Source: a virus
Virus record (IMG/VR): IMGVR_UViG_3300047160_003350
Span: 1 to 21,710 of that record
Strand: one strand, 5' to 3'
Length of the DNA stretch: 21,710 nt
Shown: positions 3,776-21,710 of the stretch, one piece after another
How positions within the stretch are numbered: the stretch's first letter is position 1
How the letters are laid out: each line of letters starts with the position of its first letter
The notes under the pieces: model-generated
The model's input: the letters and a program-made list of their open reading frames with translations, nothing else
Told to the model about the DNA's origin: nothing
The model's database searches: none
Translations under genes and position numbers: made by a program

Positions 3776-4791
3776 CAGAGATCGGCTCCGATGAACCGAC
3801 GACCGAACCGCAGCGCCGCCAGTCCTATGCTGCCCGATCCGGCGAACGGGTCCACGATCAGATCGCCGGGCGACGTCAACGCCGAAATGATGGGCTCAAG
3901 CTCGGCGACACCTTGCGCCCAGTCGTCGGTGTCACCGGTCGGGAGCGTCTTGCGGGGCGCGCTCCCGTCGATCCGGTCGGCGAGCATGAACCGGCCGCGC
4001 CGGTTGCCCCGCACAAACCACAGCAACGGTTTCCACCCGGCCGACACCCACTTACCGGGGATCATGGCCGTGCCGTGCTGGTGCAATAGGGCGATAGTCC
4101 ACCAGTAGCGCAGATGCTCGCCGAGCCGCTCGAGCGCATCGGGCAAGATCGACTGCCCGCAATAGGCGACCAGCGACCCGCCCGGTACCAGCCAGTCAGC
4201 TGACATCTTCGCCAGGTCGGACCATAGCGGCAGATACTCGGTCGGATAGGGCGGGTCGGTGAGCACCAGGGCGACCGACCCGGGCTCGACGTCGAGCACC
4301 TCTCGGAAATCGCCGTCGACTATCTCGACCTCGTCCGCGTCGACGTCAACCGCGTTGGCCTGGTCGACCGCCAGCAGCAGCGACCGCCGCGACCGCATTC
4401 CCTCGCGCACCAAACCGACCAGGAAATCTCGATAGCCGTAATACCGGCGGAACTCTTCGACCCGCTGAACGGGTATGAAAAGATCCGCGCGCGGATCTTT
4501 TTTGCCCCGTCCTGGGCCGGCACCGGGATTCGGACCGAGTCGCTGGCCGAGCTCGATCTCCACGAACATCTGCGCCGACTTGATTTCATTTTTCTCCTGG
4601 CCGTGACCATTCCACTTCTGGGCGAGCGCAGCGCATGTTGTGGCGGTATCCCAAAGGATCGCGGGGTCATCGACGTCAGGGCAACGCGCGAGCACCACCT
4701 CTGCGAACCCGGCGGGCACCATGCCCGGGCCTAGATCGGCGCGGACTAGTTGCCCATGCTCATCTTCCAGATAATCGGGATTCTCTGTCAT
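3775..4791 (-). CDS. DNA N6-adenine/N4-cytosine methyltransferase, beta-class order (338 aa)
   Basis: Start taken at ATG 4791 (MTENPDYLED), which has an ATGA overlap with the upstream gene. TDPPY (motif IV) precedes VDPFAGSGS (motif I). The longer 417-aa track ORF is a read-through of the neighbouring gene's alternative frame. Confidence 0.85.
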   Translation of the reverse strand: MTENPDYLEDEHGQLVRADLGPGMVPAGFAEVVLARCPDVDDPAILWDTATTCAALAQKWNGHGQEKNEIKSAQMFVEIELGQRLGPNPGAGPGRGKKDPRADLFIPVQRVEEFRRYYGYRDFLVGLVREGMRSRRSLLLAVDQANAVDVDADEVEIVDGDFREVLDVEPGSVALVLTDPPYPTEYLPLWSDLAKMSADWLVPGGSLVAYCGQSILPDALERLGEHLRYWWTIALLHQHGTAMIPGKWVSAGWKPLLWFVRGNRRGRFMLADRIDGSAPRKTLPTGDTDDWAQGVAELEPIISALTSPGDLIVDPFAGSGSIGLAALRFGRRFIGADL

Positions 4792-6288: not shown

Positions 6289-7104
6289 TCATCCGACCTC
6301 CCCGGTGTCGGGATCGGCCGGCCGGGACGACGGGTGGCGGGCTACCGCCTCGTCGATCAGCCGCGACAGCAGTTCGCCGTGGGCGACGGTGGCGCGCGGC
6401 CCTTTGATGTTCGGGATACCCAGGTTTTTGGCCTGTTCGGCCACCTCCGCCCGGGTCTGCTCGTCGAGGTTGTCGACCACGGCGAGGAGATAGGACCGCT
6501 GCTCGGCGGAGATCTCGTCCTCCCGGGCGTACTCGGGGATGGTGGCGCCGCCGGGGGTGAGCGAACGGGGTTCCGGGCCGGAAGCCGGGGATGGTGACGA
6601 TATGGTGTCTCCCGGCCCGGAGATCGATTCGACCTCGGTCTCGTCGAGCCAGCCGAGCCCGCAGATCGACAGGGTGGCCCGCCGTTTCGCTTTGGTCTCG
6701 GCTTTCATCAAGGCGTTGGCCAGGTTCTCGCCTTTGAGCCCGGCGATCGACACCACCCCGGTGGACTCCTCGGAGCGGCCGTCGGGCAGCGACGCCTGGG
6801 CGGTGACGATGTAAATGCCGATCTGCTCGTGCATGTCCCGGGCCGAGATCCGGGTGGACACGTGGTCGCGGCGGCGCAGCTGGTCGGCGGCGTCCTTGCG
6901 GGCGTACAGGGTGAGCTTGCCTGACAGTTTGATGTACTCGAACGGTTTGGTCAGGGGGTTGACGCCTAGCGATTGGCAGACGGCGTTGTAGTAAGCGAGG
7001 CGCTGCTCGGCGCTCAGGTTGGCCAGGTCGCCGTCGACCACGACCTGCTCGAGGGTGGCGGCGTCGATGACCTGGGCGGGGGCGACGTGCTCGAGGTCGG
7101 TCAC
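6289..7104 (-). CDS. recT: RecT-family single-strand annealing recombinase (271 aa)
   Basis: LSAEQRLAYYNAVCQSLGVNPLTKPFEYIKL..LTLYARKDAADQL...ALMKAETKAKRRATLSICGLG is the RecT signature region. GTGA overlap with the upstream gene. Confidence 0.85.
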   Translation of the reverse strand: MTDLEHVAPAQVIDAATLEQVVVDGDLANLSAEQRLAYYNAVCQSLGVNPLTKPFEYIKLSGKLTLYARKDAADQLRRRDHVSTRISARDMHEQIGIYIVTAQASLPDGRSEESTGVVSIAGLKGENLANALMKAETKAKRRATLSICGLGWLDETEVESISGPGDTISSPSPASGPEPRSLTPGGATIPEYAREDEISAEQRSYLLAVVDNLDEQTRAEVAEQAKNLGIPNIKGPRATVAHGELLSRLIDEAVARHPSSRPADPDTGEVG

Positions 7105-7286
7105 GACGCTGCGGGGGCCTTGTCGGGGTCGAGCAGGGCGTCGATGTCGCTGCGGCGGAATCGGACCTGGCCCGACGGTAGTCGTATGTGGCGGATTTTC
7201 CCGGCGTCGGCCCAGCGGCGGACGGTTTCGTCGCTGACTTCGAGCATGGCCCCGACTTCGGCGGCGCTGAGCAGTTCAGATGGCAT
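7101..7286 (-). CDS. Excisionase/MerR-type HTH protein, first gene of the leftward operon (Cro- or Xis-like, 61 aa from ATG 7286; GTG 7292 also possible)
   Basis: LLSAAEVGAMLEVSDETVRRWADAGKIRHIRLPSGQVRFRRSDIDALL. ATG 7286 lies 6 nt after a TAATAT -10 element. Confidence 0.75.
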   Translation of the reverse strand: MPSELLSAAEVGAMLEVSDETVRRWADAGKIRHIRLPSGQVRFRRSDIDALLDPDKAPAAS

Positions 7287-7292
7287 GTCCAC

Positions 7293-7322
7293 ATATTATT
7301 GGGTATTCCAATTGTTTGCCAA
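7293..7322 (-). promoter_or_regulatory. Leftward early promoter
   Basis: On the minus strand: TTGGCA (7322-7317), 18-nt spacer, TAATAT (7298-7293), 6 nt, ATG 7286. This predicts a leaderless transcript. Confidence 0.6.
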
Positions 7323-7331
7323 TAACCCTAC

Positions 7332-7365
7332 TTATCCACAAGCACTTGTGGATAGTGTGGATAAT
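7332..7365. promoter_or_regulatory. Operator-like repeats identical to DnaA-box consensus, overlapping a rightward -10 (GATAAT 7360-7365)
   Basis: TTATCCACA at 7332-7340, TGTGGATAG at 7348-7356, TGTGGATAA at 7356-7364. Palindrome TATCCACAAG-CA-CTTGTGGATA at 7333-7354. Confidence 0.7.
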
Positions 7366-7375
7366 GTGCTAGGGT

Positions 7376-7657
7376 GTGGGAATGATGGATGGGGATGTGG
7401 GGCGTCGCCCAGCCGATACGTTCGGGGCGCGCCTCGCCGTGATGCGCCAGGCCATGGGCGGCTGGAACGTGAAGAAAGTCGCCGACCACTGCGGGATCAA
7501 CGACCAGGTGTGGCGGAACTGGGAGGCAGGAATCCGGCCGCGCGACTACGTGGAGGTGTGCCGGCTCATCGCCGAACGCCTCGATTTCGAGTTCGAATGG
7601 GTGGCTTTGGGCGGCCCGCTGGACCCGGCATCAACCGGATGGTTGATCGCGGCATGA
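7376..7657 (+). CDS. XRE-family HTH protein, probable immunity repressor (93 aa; start GTG 7376 or ATG 7382/7385)
   Basis: FGARLAVMRQAMGGWNVKKVADHCGINDQVWRNWEAG is an XRE-type HTH. Divergent from the Cro/Xis-like gene. C-terminus is ...STGWLIAA. Confidence 0.75.
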   Translation: MGMMDGDVGRRPADTFGARLAVMRQAMGGWNVKKVADHCGINDQVWRNWEAGIRPRDYVEVCRLIAERLDFEFEWVALGGPLDPASTGWLIAA

Positions 7658-7830
7658 TCGTTATCAAGATCGACGACACCCGCACCGGGGCCAAAGGCCG
7701 GATCGTCACCTACCCGCGCGGCCGCATCACATGGATCTGCCAGGAATGCGACGACAGCGACGACCTGGCCCGGGGTTGGGGTGAAGCCGTTGACGCATTT
7801 TTGGCCCACTACGAGACCGAGCACAGCTAG
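7654..7830 (+). CDS. Hypothetical protein (58 aa)
   Basis: ATGA overlap with the repressor stop (7654-7657). MIVIKIDDTRTGAKGRIVTYPRGRITWICQECDDSDDLARGWGEAVDAFLAHYETEHS. Confidence 0.55.
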   Translation: MIVIKIDDTRTGAKGRIVTYPRGRITWICQECDDSDDLARGWGEAVDAFLAHYETEHS

Positions 7831-7870: not shown

Positions 7871-8701
7871 ATGCTGCTCGAAGATGCCATCACCGCCTAC
7901 GTGACCGACCGGGCCGCCCGGGGCGAGCTGACCGCCGGCTCGGCCTACCAGATCGGGTGGCGGCTGCGAACCCTGGCCCACTGCCACCCGGGTTTGCCGG
8001 TCGGGGACCTGTCGGCCGGGCATGTGGCGGACTGGCAGCGCCGAACCGGCGGCCAGTCGCCGGCGGCGCGCCGCTACTACCTGTCGAGCCTGCGGGTGTT
8101 CTGCCGGTGGGCCGCGGCCGCCGGTCTGCTCGATGCGGATCCGACGGCCGGTACCGCCCGGGTGCGCGAACCGAGAGCGGTGCCGCGCGCCCTGTCGCCG
8201 GGCCGGGTGGCCCGCCTGGTCATGGTGCTGCCCGACGACCGGGCCCGCCTGATCGTCGGGCTGATGCACCAGGCCGGATTGCGGTGCGTGGAGGTGTCCC
8301 GCCTGACGGCGGCCGACTGGGACAGCTCGGCCGCGGTGCTGCGGGTGGTGGGCAAAGCCGGCCACGTCCGCGAGCTGCCGGTGCTCGATGATCTGGCCGC
8401 CATGCTCAACCGGCGCGCCGCCGGCCGCAGCGGCCGGCTGGTCGGCCTGTCACCGGCCCGGATATCGGTGCTGGTGTCACGCTGGCTCGACGCCGCCGGG
8501 TTGAAGACCGCGGCCTACGACGGGATCTCCGCCCACGCCCTCAGGCATTCGGCGGCGTCGGACCTGCTCGACGGGTGCGGCGACGTCCGCCTGGTCCAGG
8601 AGTTCCTGGGGCATGTGTCGCTGGCCACCACGGAGCGGTATTTGCGGCGCCGGTCTACCGCCGAGATCCGCGCCGCCATGCTCAAATCGCGGTCGGCCTA
8701 G
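7871..8701 (+). CDS. int: Tyrosine recombinase/integrase, short XerC/D-like (276 aa)
   Basis: GGGAGG at 7858-7863 upstream of the ATG. GLRCVEVSRL (Arg), HALRHS (H-x-x-R) and LGHVSLATTERYL (His...Tyr) are the catalytic motifs. There is no long N-terminal arm-binding domain. Confidence 0.9.
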   Translation: MLLEDAITAYVTDRAARGELTAGSAYQIGWRLRTLAHCHPGLPVGDLSAGHVADWQRRTGGQSPAARRYYLSSLRVFCRWAAAAGLLDADPTAGTARVREPRAVPRALSPGRVARLVMVLPDDRARLIVGLMHQAGLRCVEVSRLTAADWDSSAAVLRVVGKAGHVRELPVLDDLAAMLNRRAAGRSGRLVGLSPARISVLVSRWLDAAGLKTAAYDGISAHALRHSAASDLLDGCGDVRLVQEFLGHVSLATTERYLRRRSTAEIRAAMLKSRSA

Positions 8702-21210: not shown

Positions 21211-21710
21211 TCAGTAGATCCTGAAATCGCCGAGGGCGGGGCCGCGGTGATCGTAACCCCACACTGCGACAGTCATGGCGGTCAGGGCGGCGAGCGACCC
21301 GGCTGACTGGCGCCGGCCCCACGCCCACGCGTCCCCCAAAGGACGCCGGGCGGCGGACGCGGCGGCGGCGTCAAGGTTGGGGTGTGGCCGGTACCTGAGG
21401 GCGGGCGGGTCGGCGCAGACGGCGTCGAGGACGCGGGCGCACGCCGCGGCGTATTCGCGCGCTTGTAGGCCGGCGAGGGCGATCCCGGCCCGCTCCAGCT
21501 GGTCGGCGATGTCCAAAGCGGGACCGGCTTTGTCGTAGGCGACCACCACAGGCTGCCAGCGCGCCGCCAGGTCGGCGATCCGCTCGGCGAGCCACCCGAC
21601 ACCGGGCCGGGCGTCGGCGACCTCGACGTGGGCGACCCCGTCGTCGGTCCGCCACGCCGCGACAACCGCGGCGTCGGAGCGGTCGACGGCGACGTCGAAG
21701 CCGAGAGCGA
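21211..21710 (-). CDS. terL: Terminase large subunit, C-terminal nuclease part (continuation of 1..935)
   Basis: Same frame as 1..935 through the 97-nt overlap. Translation: LGFDVAVDRSDAAVVAAWRTDDGVAHVEVADARPGVGWLAERIADLAARWQPVVVAYDKAGPA...GDFRIY*, an RNaseH-like terminase nuclease pattern. TGA at 21211-21213. Confidence 0.9.
   Translation of the reverse strand, partial: ALGFDVAVDRSDAAVVAAWRTDDGVAHVEVADARPGVGWLAERIADLAARWQPVVVAYDKAGPALDIADQLERAGIALAGLQAREYAAACARVLDAVCADPPALRYRPHPNLDAAAASAARRPLGDAWAWGRRQSAGSLAALTAMTVAVWGYDHRGPALGDFRIY
21614..21710. repeat. Terminal direct repeat, copy 2 (identical to 1..97)
   Basis: Same 97-nt string as the window start. Confidence 0.95.

Follow-up and report, generated by a model that had tools for sequence, protein, structure and literature searches.

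A 9-bp repeat array with DnaA-box letters at the putative genetic switch of a small Brujita-like temperate phage

The window that we analysed is a stretch of viral DNA of 21,710 nucleotides (IMG/VR record IMGVR_UViG_3300047160_003350, positions 1 to 21,710), and the element in question is an intergenic region at 7293-7375 with three nine-base boxes that look like binding sites of DnaA, the replication initiator of the host. The region separates two divergent genes, one encoding an immunity repressor of the XRE family and the other, which we call the cro-position gene, encoding a small winged-helix protein. The three DnaA-box look-alikes are real and conserved. Judged from comparison of related sequences, they are probably operator units of the phage's own bistable switch, controlling the promoter of the repressor. 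We take the letter-for-letter match to the DnaA box to be a property of the unit used in this lineage, not the reason for the array. Relative to an initial annotation made from this DNA alone, the analysis identifies the gene cassette to which the switch belongs, moves the likely core of the phage attachment site (attP) to 7628-7646 and corrects the repressor promoter; the array, which is found throughout the family, also suggests how the cro-position protein might act.

The boxes and their conservation

All three boxes described in the initial annotation are present, and its count of two perfect matches and one match in eight of nine positions to the DnaA consensus TT(A/T)TNCACA agrees with their positions and letters; all three lie inside 33 bp. 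Box 2 had been placed one base off (at 7348-7356 in place of 7347-7355), and boxes 2 and 3, thought to overlap, abut according to their coordinates (Table 1). The perfect 10-2-10 palindrome TATCCACAAG-CA-CTTGTGGATA at 7333-7354 also exists as described, with both arms intact, and only a few other repeats of this hairpin type, perfect over 10 bp, exist in the genome. The window contains three copies of the 8-mer TATCCACA, all in the switch region, compared to 0.11 in shuffled sequences, and none of 100 shuffles reaches three copies. Further, weaker copies of the box are TGTGC at 7365, TGTGG at 7375 and GTCCACA at 7287-7293. The AT-richness that had been noted is pronounced: the GC content of 7293-7375 is 38.6%, against 68.1% for the genome, which makes the region its second most AT-rich spot.

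Profile-guided searches yielded about 45 distinct related loci, to which we refer, as to other contigs, by numbers preceded by L. In an alignment of nine distinct close switches, CCACA of box 1, TTGTGG of box 2 and TGTGG of box 3 are invariant, whereas the sequence between them varies; the layout they share is CCACA, about 6 bp, TTGTGG, and then TGTGG 9 bp further on. The nine bases of box 1 read TTATCCACA in the window, L002, L008, L016, L030, L056, L299 and L304, TTGTCCACA in L007, and TTATGCACA in L001, L029 and L306. Boxes 1 and 2 are 6 bp apart in seven lineages; elsewhere the gap measures 5, 7, 9 or 15 bp.

Units in the window start at 7347, 7356, 7365 and 7375, that is, at spacings of 9, 9 and 10 bp. 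This register extends to all 36 loci for which the script could place the repressor start, a set that includes repressors down to about 40% identity: anchored on the last T of the -10 element, the upstream DNA of each divides into four units whose starts are 9, 9 and 10 bp apart. The self-match in the 30 nucleotides upstream of the -10 element is 0.45 at an offset of nine, compared to 0.17-0.32 at other offsets, and the first two units agree in at least five of six bases in 19 of the 36 loci. What fills the register is lineage-specific. In the window and its close relatives the 9-bp unit consists of TGTGGA and about three A/T-rich bases; it is TGCGCG or TGCACG in Brujita, whose array reads TGCGCGATA TGCACGGTT TGTGCAGACT TGCACGT ATG, and likewise in Bowser, L012, L018, L025 and L048; and it is TTGGCT in L036. 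The TGCGCG lineages have a further copy of their unit 5 nucleotides downstream of the -35 element of the lytic promoter. The slot for that copy is degenerate in the lineage of the window, with CGTGGGATA in L016 and L010 and TTGGAATAC in the window itself, where the element is part of the ATTGG-N5-CCAAT dyad discussed below.

A conserved architecture that is filled with lineage-specific sequence argues for phage-encoded regulators that have co-evolved with their sites. Because homologous switches keep the 9/9/10 register with different units, phage-encoded operators are favoured, and DnaA is disfavoured, as the reason for the array; one host factor of a single specificity cannot explain TGTGGA, TGCRCG and TTGGCT units. 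Of three readings offered in the initial annotation, that of ordinary switch operators is thus the one that fared best: the boxes are invariant in nine switches, lie on the repressor promoter, and occupy slots that are refilled in distant homologues.

Some relatives depart from the common arrangement. An open reading frame (ORF) of about 68 codons is inserted between the leaderless promoter and the repressor in L007 (540-746), L029 and L306. The inverted pair TTATGCACA-N6-7-TGTGGA is shifted about 20 bp upstream of the promoter array in L001, L029 and L306, and this displacement shows the dyad and the array to be separable modules.

Two divergent promoters

The leftward early-lytic promoter, P_R, had been predicted from the start to produce a leaderless mRNA, and this prediction gains support from a promoter scan and from conservation. 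The scan gave two matches where 0.3 are expected, the alternative P_R having a 16-nucleotide spacer and AATAAT as its -10 element. Relatives have TTGNCA-N16-18-TAnnnn at the equivalent place, 6-9 nucleotides before the ATG of the cro-position gene. The start of this gene at ATG 7286 agrees with the MPSE or MPGE N-termini of the relatives, and no Shine-Dalgarno sequence is found upstream of it.

The rightward promoter, P_rep, needed revision. The hexamer GATAAT that had been proposed as its -10 element is present at 7360-7365; however, TAGGGT at 7370-7375 is the more likely -10 element, both from the conserved position of a TAnnnT hexamer and from the public gene call for the repressor, which starts at 7382 (P0001, 91 amino acids). 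In most of the 36 loci such a hexamer is found 5-8 nucleotides before the repressor ATG, and the remaining called hexamers begin with G or C. We rejected GATAAT as the -10 element of the repressor promoter as it lies one unit too far left compared to the conserved TAGGGT. P_rep, too, is predicted to be leaderless, with TTGTGG in box 2 as its -35 element, box 3 in its spacer and the TG of the fourth unit as an extended -10; box 1 stands between the -35 elements of the two promoters. Lineages without TGTGG units also have TG(T/C)G directly after the -10 element.

The main lytic operator of the XRE repressor is more likely to be the ATTGG/CCAAT dyad in P_R than the boxes. ATTGG-N5-CCAAT is replaced at the same place by CTAGG-N5-CCTAG in L008 and by GGATATCC in L016, and in phage BPs the operator O_R is found between the -10 element and the -35 element of P_R (PMC4557955). 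Other lineages have a palindrome centred on the -35 element of the lytic promoter, with arms that vary between lineages: TCGTG-TCAAG-CACGA in Brujita (L062, 1855-1875), GTGACG-TCAAG-CGTCAC in L042, and AGTGGTGT-CAA-ACACCACT in L018. These palindromes, and that of L020, are candidate repressor operators distinct from the 9-bp units.

The immunity cassette

Gene order and protein similarity indicate that the locus is an integration-dependent immunity cassette of the Brujita type, in which the defining feature, an attP within the repressor gene, is predicted from the comparisons given below. In the systems of integration-dependent immunity described by Broussard and Hatfull, attP is located inside the repressor gene (PMC3694055, PMC4557955). 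The order 7101-7286 (-), followed by 7382-7657, 7654-7830 and 7871-8701 (all +), is matched in Brujita by gp35 on one side and gp34-gp33 on the other, and in at least 40 related loci; Brujita gp35 (MerR-like, a putative excisionase) is divergent from gp34, the repressor, and gp33, the integrase.

The repressor is 46-47% identical (tblastn, 76-77% of the query, E values from 1e-13 to 3e-10) to annotated immunity repressors of Brujita, the BIB phages, the M. abscessus prophage prophi62-3 and the Gordonia phage Bowser, with 46% identity to Brujita gp34. Its C-terminus resembles an ssrA tag, and the repressors of relatives end in EVAA, VLAA, GRAA, GVAA, VVAA or LAAAA, which are likewise ssrA-like at the sequence level. 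The integrase has only partial matches to XerC and XerD, far below the NCBIfam cut-off, and ends in MLKSRSA; some of its relatives end in -AA (RLAA, HAAA, PIAA or GFAA) and others do not. The small Cys-rich ORF between the two genes has a DDLARGWGEA block in common with L001 (about 4430-4610), is absent from Brujita, and has no family match in Pfam, PHROG or NCBIfam.

The cro-position protein matches Pfam HTH_17 (8.8e-13) and PHROG 66 (excisionase/regulator), and passes the cut-offs of HTH_17 and of the excisionase family TIGR01764. Its best named family is NCBIfam BldC (1.8e-15), where its 56.5 bits are below the family cut-off of 77. Among structures in the PDB it matches BldC (6AMA, 3.8e-8 over 49 residues) and Pukovnik Xis (4J2N, 4e-4).

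Table 1. Features of the switch region and the adjoining genes, in window coordinates.
Feature	Position	Strand	Description
Cro-position gene	7101..7286	-	61-amino-acid BldC/Xis-like winged-helix protein (HTH_17/MerR-like); first gene of the leftward early operon
P_R, leftward early-lytic promoter (predicted)	7293..7322	-	-35 TTGGCA (7322-7317), 18 nt, -10 TAATAT (7298-7293), 6 nt, ATG 7286
ATTGG/CCAAT half-sites	7298-7302, 7308-7312, 7319-7323		Across the P_R spacer and -35; candidate O_R for the XRE repressor
Box 1	7332-7340	+	TTATCCACA; inverted relative to boxes 2 and 3; between the two divergent promoters
Box 2	7347-7355	-	CTATCCACA on the - strand, TGTGGATAG on the + strand; TTGTGG (7346-7351) also serves as the putative repressor-promoter -35
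Box 3	7356-7364	-	TTATCCACA on the - strand, TGTGGATAA on the + strand; abuts box 2 (9-bp period); in the P_rep spacer
P_rep core (predicted)	7365..7381	+	TGTGC 7365-7369 (extended -10 TG), -10 TAGGGT 7370-7375, TGTGG 7375-7379; probable start at the A of ATG 7382
XRE-family immunity repressor	7382..7657	+	91 amino acids; C-terminus ...STGWLIAA (ssrA-like tail); PHROG 2328, transcriptional repressor
Candidate attP common core	7628..7646		CATCAACCGGATGGTTGAT; centre of the dyad 7625-7652; repressor codons S-T-G-W-L-I
Small Cys-rich ORF	7654..7830	+	58 amino acids; start overlaps the repressor stop (ATGA); from frame analysis of GC at third codon positions (GC3)
Short tyrosine integrase	7871..8701	+	276 amino acids; co-oriented with the repressor; Pfam Phage_integrase 8.4e-18, PHROG 1 8e-37

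A proposed mechanism and the candidate binding protein

We propose that two leaderless promoters stand back to back in the switch, with P_R driving the cro-position gene and the other early genes, and P_rep driving the repressor, the small ORF and the integrase. The array would begin with box 1, inverted, between the promoters, continue with boxes 2 and 3 over the -35 element and spacer of P_rep, and run in two degenerate copies (boxes 4 and 5) through the -10 element to the start codon. If a protein occupied boxes 2 and 3, RNA polymerase would be blocked at P_rep, and the synthesis of both repressor and integrase would stop. The first candidate for such a protein is the cro-position winged-helix protein, which might bind head-to-tail on the 9-bp direct repeats in the manner of BldC. 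If it polymerised over boxes 2-5, then this would amount to a Cro-like commitment to lytic growth. The XRE repressor would hold P_R through the ATTGG/CCAAT sites, and it may share the boxes for negative autoregulation, like cI and Cro of phage lambda. We infer the binding protein and the direction of regulation from the features observed, their conservation, their position on the promoters, the protein families and the synteny.

Several known systems provide precedents. BldC binds 9-bp direct repeats head-to-tail in cooperative multimers; the direct repeats of the window have a period of 9-10 bp, as do the smeA and whiI sites of BldC (PMC5859096). The cro-position protein is, like BldC and Xis (PDB 6AMA/6AMK and 4J2N), a small MerR-like winged-helix protein without a dimerisation domain. 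A MerR-like protein of a phage, D29 gp36, binds direct repeats and represses transcription (PMC12266134), as we propose here. In BPs, O_R at P_R is a strong binding site of the repressor and O_rep at P_rep a weaker one (PMC4557955), and the mechanism of Cro in integration-dependent immunity systems has been described as unknown (PMC3694055).

Covariation, at least in the TGCRCG group, tends to favour the winged-helix protein as the one that recognises the units. In this group, mean pairwise identity is 0.63-0.64 in the recognition segment and wing of the winged-helix protein, compared to 0.44 in the XRE helix. The signatures of the protein differ between groups of switches: VDxSTVRRW with PGGH(Y/H)RF in the TGCRCG group, and SDETxRRW with PSGQxRF in the TGTGGA group. 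However, shared ancestry confounds this comparison.

A number of observations weigh against operators read by the phage's own regulators. The TGTGGA group, to which the window belongs, conserves both the XRE helix (0.64) and the winged-helix segment (0.58), and covariation is therefore uninformative there. The BldC consensus, AATTxxxx(C), is unlike TGTGGAnnn, the score of the cro-position protein stays below the cut-off of the BldC family, and the array of the window contains an inverted copy; the protein would need a specificity other than that of BldC. Conservation extends over all 9-11 bases of box 1, but in its palindromic partner, box 2, over TTGTGGA only. Such a strong-weak-strong asymmetry is also typical of DnaA clusters. 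The variation seen in box 1 (A or G at position 3, C or G at position 5) stays mostly within the DnaA consensus, and the same box geometry recurs in unrelated low-GC phages where neither regulator has a homologue. In addition, TG in box 4 and TGTG in box 5 may belong to the promoter and not to operator units.

Alternative explanations

If this last point were extended to the whole array, then the repeats would be nothing but promoter sequence (the TTG of a -35 element, the TG of an extended -10, a discriminator) or chance, without a dedicated binding protein. Some of the letters can be read in this way: the TTG of box 2 belongs to the -35 element and the TG of box 4 to the extended -10, TG(T/C)G follows the -10 element even where TGTGG units are lacking, and a second promoter of leaderless type at 1807-1827 also reads TGTGG-TACAAT. 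However, both box 1, which is not part of either core promoter, and box 3, which is in a spacer, are invariant in nine lineages; the first unit is duplicated nine bp downstream across the family, and in a lineage-specific manner; and the enrichment of the 8-mer exceeds that in all 100 shuffles. We therefore regard this explanation as very unlikely.

A likelier alternative is binding of boxes 1-3 by host DnaA, which could act there as a transcription factor that ties the expression of repressor and integrase to the initiation status of the host; or the boxes could be a DARS-like (DnaA-reactivating sequence) or titration element or, least likely, a phage origin. We consider DnaA binding possible but unlikely. 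In its favour are the letters themselves, with two perfect copies of TTATCCACA and one copy in eight of nine positions, and the recurrence of their arrangement: the layout TTATCCACA-N6-TGTGGA-N3-TGTGGA, with 21 fixed bases, is present in at least 120 viral contigs from about ten sequence families. Nearly all of these contigs have 38-57% GC, most have the full TGTGGATAA as box 3, and they are genuine phages, with terminase, portal and lysin genes, in which a homologue of either regulator is absent. The 113 distinct inverted perfect pairs TTATCCACA ... TGTGGATAA that we collected from viral contigs (L188-L298) have a bimodal gap, with preferred values of 5-6 and 14-15 bp that are about one helical turn apart; in the window the gap is 6 bp between boxes 1 and 2 and 15 bp between boxes 1 and 3. 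The core of DARS1 of E. coli, which we took by coordinate because blastn with the box region had found nothing in E. coli genomes, is TTATCCACT-5-TGTGGATAA-3-TGTGTATTA and has the same pattern of orientations (PMC6868365). The likeness to DARS1, DARS2 and oriC includes the match to TT(A/T)TNCACA, a first box opposite to the second, a third in the same sense as the second, a degenerate fourth box, and the order strong, weak, strong. Among the relatives of the window, L007 uses TTGTCCACA, the actinobacterial form, for boxes 1 and 3, and box 1, unlike box 2, is conserved over all nine bases with variants (TTGTCCACA and TTATGCACA) that mostly fit the DnaA consensus. As the initial annotation had stated, the complete genome also appears to encode no polymerase, primase or helicase: none of these, and no initiator, was found among its proteins in searches of Pfam, PHROG and NCBIfam and in fold checks, which revealed only a Rad52-like annealing protein.

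Other observations speak against DnaA. In homologous switches the 9/9/10 architecture is built from TGCRCG, TTGGCT and other units that do not match the DnaA box; box 1, and often box 3, persists as a DnaA box in close relatives but not in the more distant homologous switches. The high-affinity DnaA box of M. tuberculosis and S. coelicolor is TTGTCCACA (PMC4285127), but at least eight lineages of these 68% GC phages have TTATCCACA in box 1 and one has TTGTCCACA, which is in line with the reservation, made at the outset, that the box form preferred in actinobacteria weakens the case for an origin that recruits DnaA. A search for the TTGTCCACA version of the layout found only moderate-GC clusters of DnaA boxes, and no high-GC phages or actinophages. 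Box 2 is off consensus at two positions in most relatives, and the spacings of 6 and 0 bp in the window differ from the 5 and 3 bp of DARS1 (PMC6868365). A DnaA-trio is absent: no run of two TA(A/G) or (C/T)TA triplets occurs in 7201-7450 and none of three in the whole genome. The AT-rich flank is fully explained by the conserved -35 and -10 elements of the lytic promoter, and, in contrast to DARS elements and oriC, the array of the window has no unwinding element and overlaps a core promoter.

The origin proposed in the initial annotation is unsupported by these comparisons, whereas the recurrence of the triad and its likeness to DARS1 leave some probability for binding of DnaA. We rejected the switch as an origin of the oriC type, because it lacks an unwinding element and a DnaA-trio and because the boxes are not retained in the more distant homologous switches; a phage origin of any kind at the switch is highly improbable. 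A more specific version, which we consider rather doubtful, is that the switch has co-opted a DARS-like triad for host DnaA (inverted strong, weak, strong) over the promoter of repressor and integrase. If this were the case, then the amount or nucleotide state of DnaA would gate the choice between lysis and lysogeny, or the phage would perturb the reactivation of DnaA, and the triad in about ten unrelated families of low-GC phages would represent a general strategy, as yet undescribed, by which phages sense or manipulate the host initiator. The low-GC triads themselves (L068-L147, for example 6224-6253 in L082 and 10105-10134 in L144) are often near terminase or lysis genes, and some are part of clusters of seven or eight DnaA boxes with inverted repeats on either side. 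Their role might be that of a phage origin, a DARS-like element or a titration element. The ORFs immediately beside the triads have no PHROG or Pfam match, with the terminase, portal and lysin genes only further off.

The location of attP

The palindrome at 7333-7354 had also been put forward as the core of attP, at which the short integrase would exchange strands. Inverted arms around a short spacer, together with an integrase without a recognisable arm-binding domain, would suit such a role. However, relatives with closely related integrases have spacers of different sequence and length (5, 6, 7, 9 or 15 bp) between the arms, and because a common core should be identical among relatives, the palindrome is not expected to be one. 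In Brujita the attP core is the antisense of a tRNA 3' half inside the repressor gene. In L011, a distantly related prophage on an 861-kb actinobacterial contig, the prophage's own switch, which has no TGTGG boxes, is intact, and the repressor ORF runs into a tRNA-Arg gene. A better candidate is the 19-bp block at 7628-7646, which recurs without a mismatch in L066, although the DNA around it cannot be aligned, and precedes an ssrA-like tail in both phages; a second class of core, TCTACCAAATGGTATTCGCCGC, is identical in L001 and L002 and is found at the same place. An attP at the switch palindrome is hardly credible in view of this evidence.

The block at 7628-7646 is the likely common core of attP, and the comparisons support it much better than the palindrome of the switch. 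The exact CATCAACCGGATGGTTGAT occurs in L066 (67% GC, 4056-4074) at the 3' end of the gene for a non-homologous XRE repressor of 116 amino acids that ends in ...STGWLIVPHRLAAAA. It lies there 70 nucleotides upstream of the start of an integrase gene whose DNA is 81% identical to that of the window, and the flanks cannot be aligned. Because a short identical block in otherwise unrelated DNA beside related integrases is what a common core looks like, we consider this block to be the likely core. In the window, the codons for S-T-G-W-L-I form the dyad CCGGCATCAACC-GGAT-GGTTGATCGCGG (7625-7652), which relatives keep through compensatory changes, as in GTCAACC-GGGT-GGTTGAC of L005.

An 18-mer search with the core among viral contigs gave one informative match, that to L066; we read those to L064, L065 and L067 (42-53% GC) as chance. 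The core is not tRNA-like: tRNA and Rfam searches were empty, and a scan for the T-loop motif gave matches at chance level. Scans with the repressor profile, which gave three distant loci in the genome collection and 34 in metagenomes, found no lysogen either of this phage or of a near relative; no attB, attL or attR was found for this phage, and a search of viral contigs based on the integrase found nothing.

The genome and other features

The window begins and ends with an exact direct repeat of 97 bp (1-97 and 21614-21710), and the terminase ORF wraps around its ends. Because of this terminal repeat and the ORF that crosses the ends, we conclude that the window is a complete circular assembly of the 21,613-bp genome of a temperate phage. 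At 21.6 kb it is unusually small for a temperate tailed actinophage, and its relatives are similar (contigs of 18.1, 20.1 and 21.7 kb). The genes include those for terminase, portal, capsid, tape measure protein, endolysin, two DNA methyltransferases and an HNH nuclease. A megablast search with the whole window found no match among GenBank phages.

Directly downstream of the cro-position gene lies a gene for a protein of 271 amino acids (6289-7104, - strand) with more than 6,500 homologues and no match in Pfam, PHROG or NCBIfam. Its AlphaFold model (predicted local distance difference test score, pLDDT, 82.7) matches RAD52, Sak of phage 80-alpha and Mgm101, and the protein is thus predicted from its modelled fold to be a Rad52-like single-strand annealing protein belonging to a large unannotated family. 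We rejected this gene as a Brujita-type antirepressor or as an initiator, as it has no similarity to Brujita gp36 and the fold of its product is Rad52/Sak-like.

Two further regions drew our attention. The most AT-rich stretch of the genome, at 1367-1456 (34% GC), has long T runs and two copies of TTTTCAAAAC and separates the HNH gene from the terminase region; its possible roles are those of a cos-proximal element, a terminator or a candidate origin. At 1780-1827, the palindrome GTGGTCCCA-TT-GGGACCAC is followed by TGTGG-TACAAT, 7 nucleotides and ATG 1825. This is the second promoter of leaderless type, and it precedes two small genes on the + strand (1825-1986 and 1983-2225) among genes on the - strand; the product of the second has a C-terminal helix-turn-helix.

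Comparison with known switches

The cassette of the window shares with those of BPs, Brujita and Charlie the co-transcribed repressor and short tyrosine integrase, the divergent gene for a small DNA-binding protein, and a control region of about 90-200 bp with two promoters. Also shared are the ssrA-like C-terminus of the repressor (LIAA in the window) and the candidate attP core in the repressor gene's 3' end. With Brujita it has, in addition, the gene synteny and the 9/9/10 repeat array over P_rep in common. The window differs from these phages in its genome of only 21.6 kb, in the extra small ORF between repressor and integrase, and in an integrase that ends in ...SRSA, which is not clearly a degradation tag. 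Its unit, TGTGGA(TAA), stands in place of TGCRCG in Brujita and CGACATATGTCG in BPs, and the candidate core is unlike the tRNA 3' half used by Brujita.

The three operators between P_R and P_RM of phage lambda are used by both cI and Cro. The switch of the window resembles lambda O_R in that divergent promoters are separated by repeated operators, whose occupancy would decide which promoter fires; by analogy, operators shared by two unrelated regulators are plausible here. However, the promoters of the window are back to back, do not overlap and are both predicted to be leaderless, the repeats are 9-bp direct repeats with one inverted copy and not three 17-bp pseudo-palindromes, and the cro-position protein has the winged-helix fold of Xis and BldC.

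Implications

Integration-dependent immunity is regarded as the simplest known phage switch, and the role of the protein in the cro position has been described as unknown (PMC3694055). The 9/9/10 array over a leaderless P_rep, beside a gene for a BldC/Xis-like protein, provides a concrete hypothesis for this Cro: it would polymerise on the array and shut off the repressor together with the integrase. The cassette also extends integration-dependent immunity to very small actinobacterial phages (about 18-22 kb) that are known only from metagenomes. The comparison with L066 suggests that attP cores can be found without the host, as identical short blocks inside otherwise unrelated repressor genes. 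If DnaA does bind the boxes, then the switch would link the replication-initiation status of the host to lysogeny, and the recurrent triad would be worth a study of its own.

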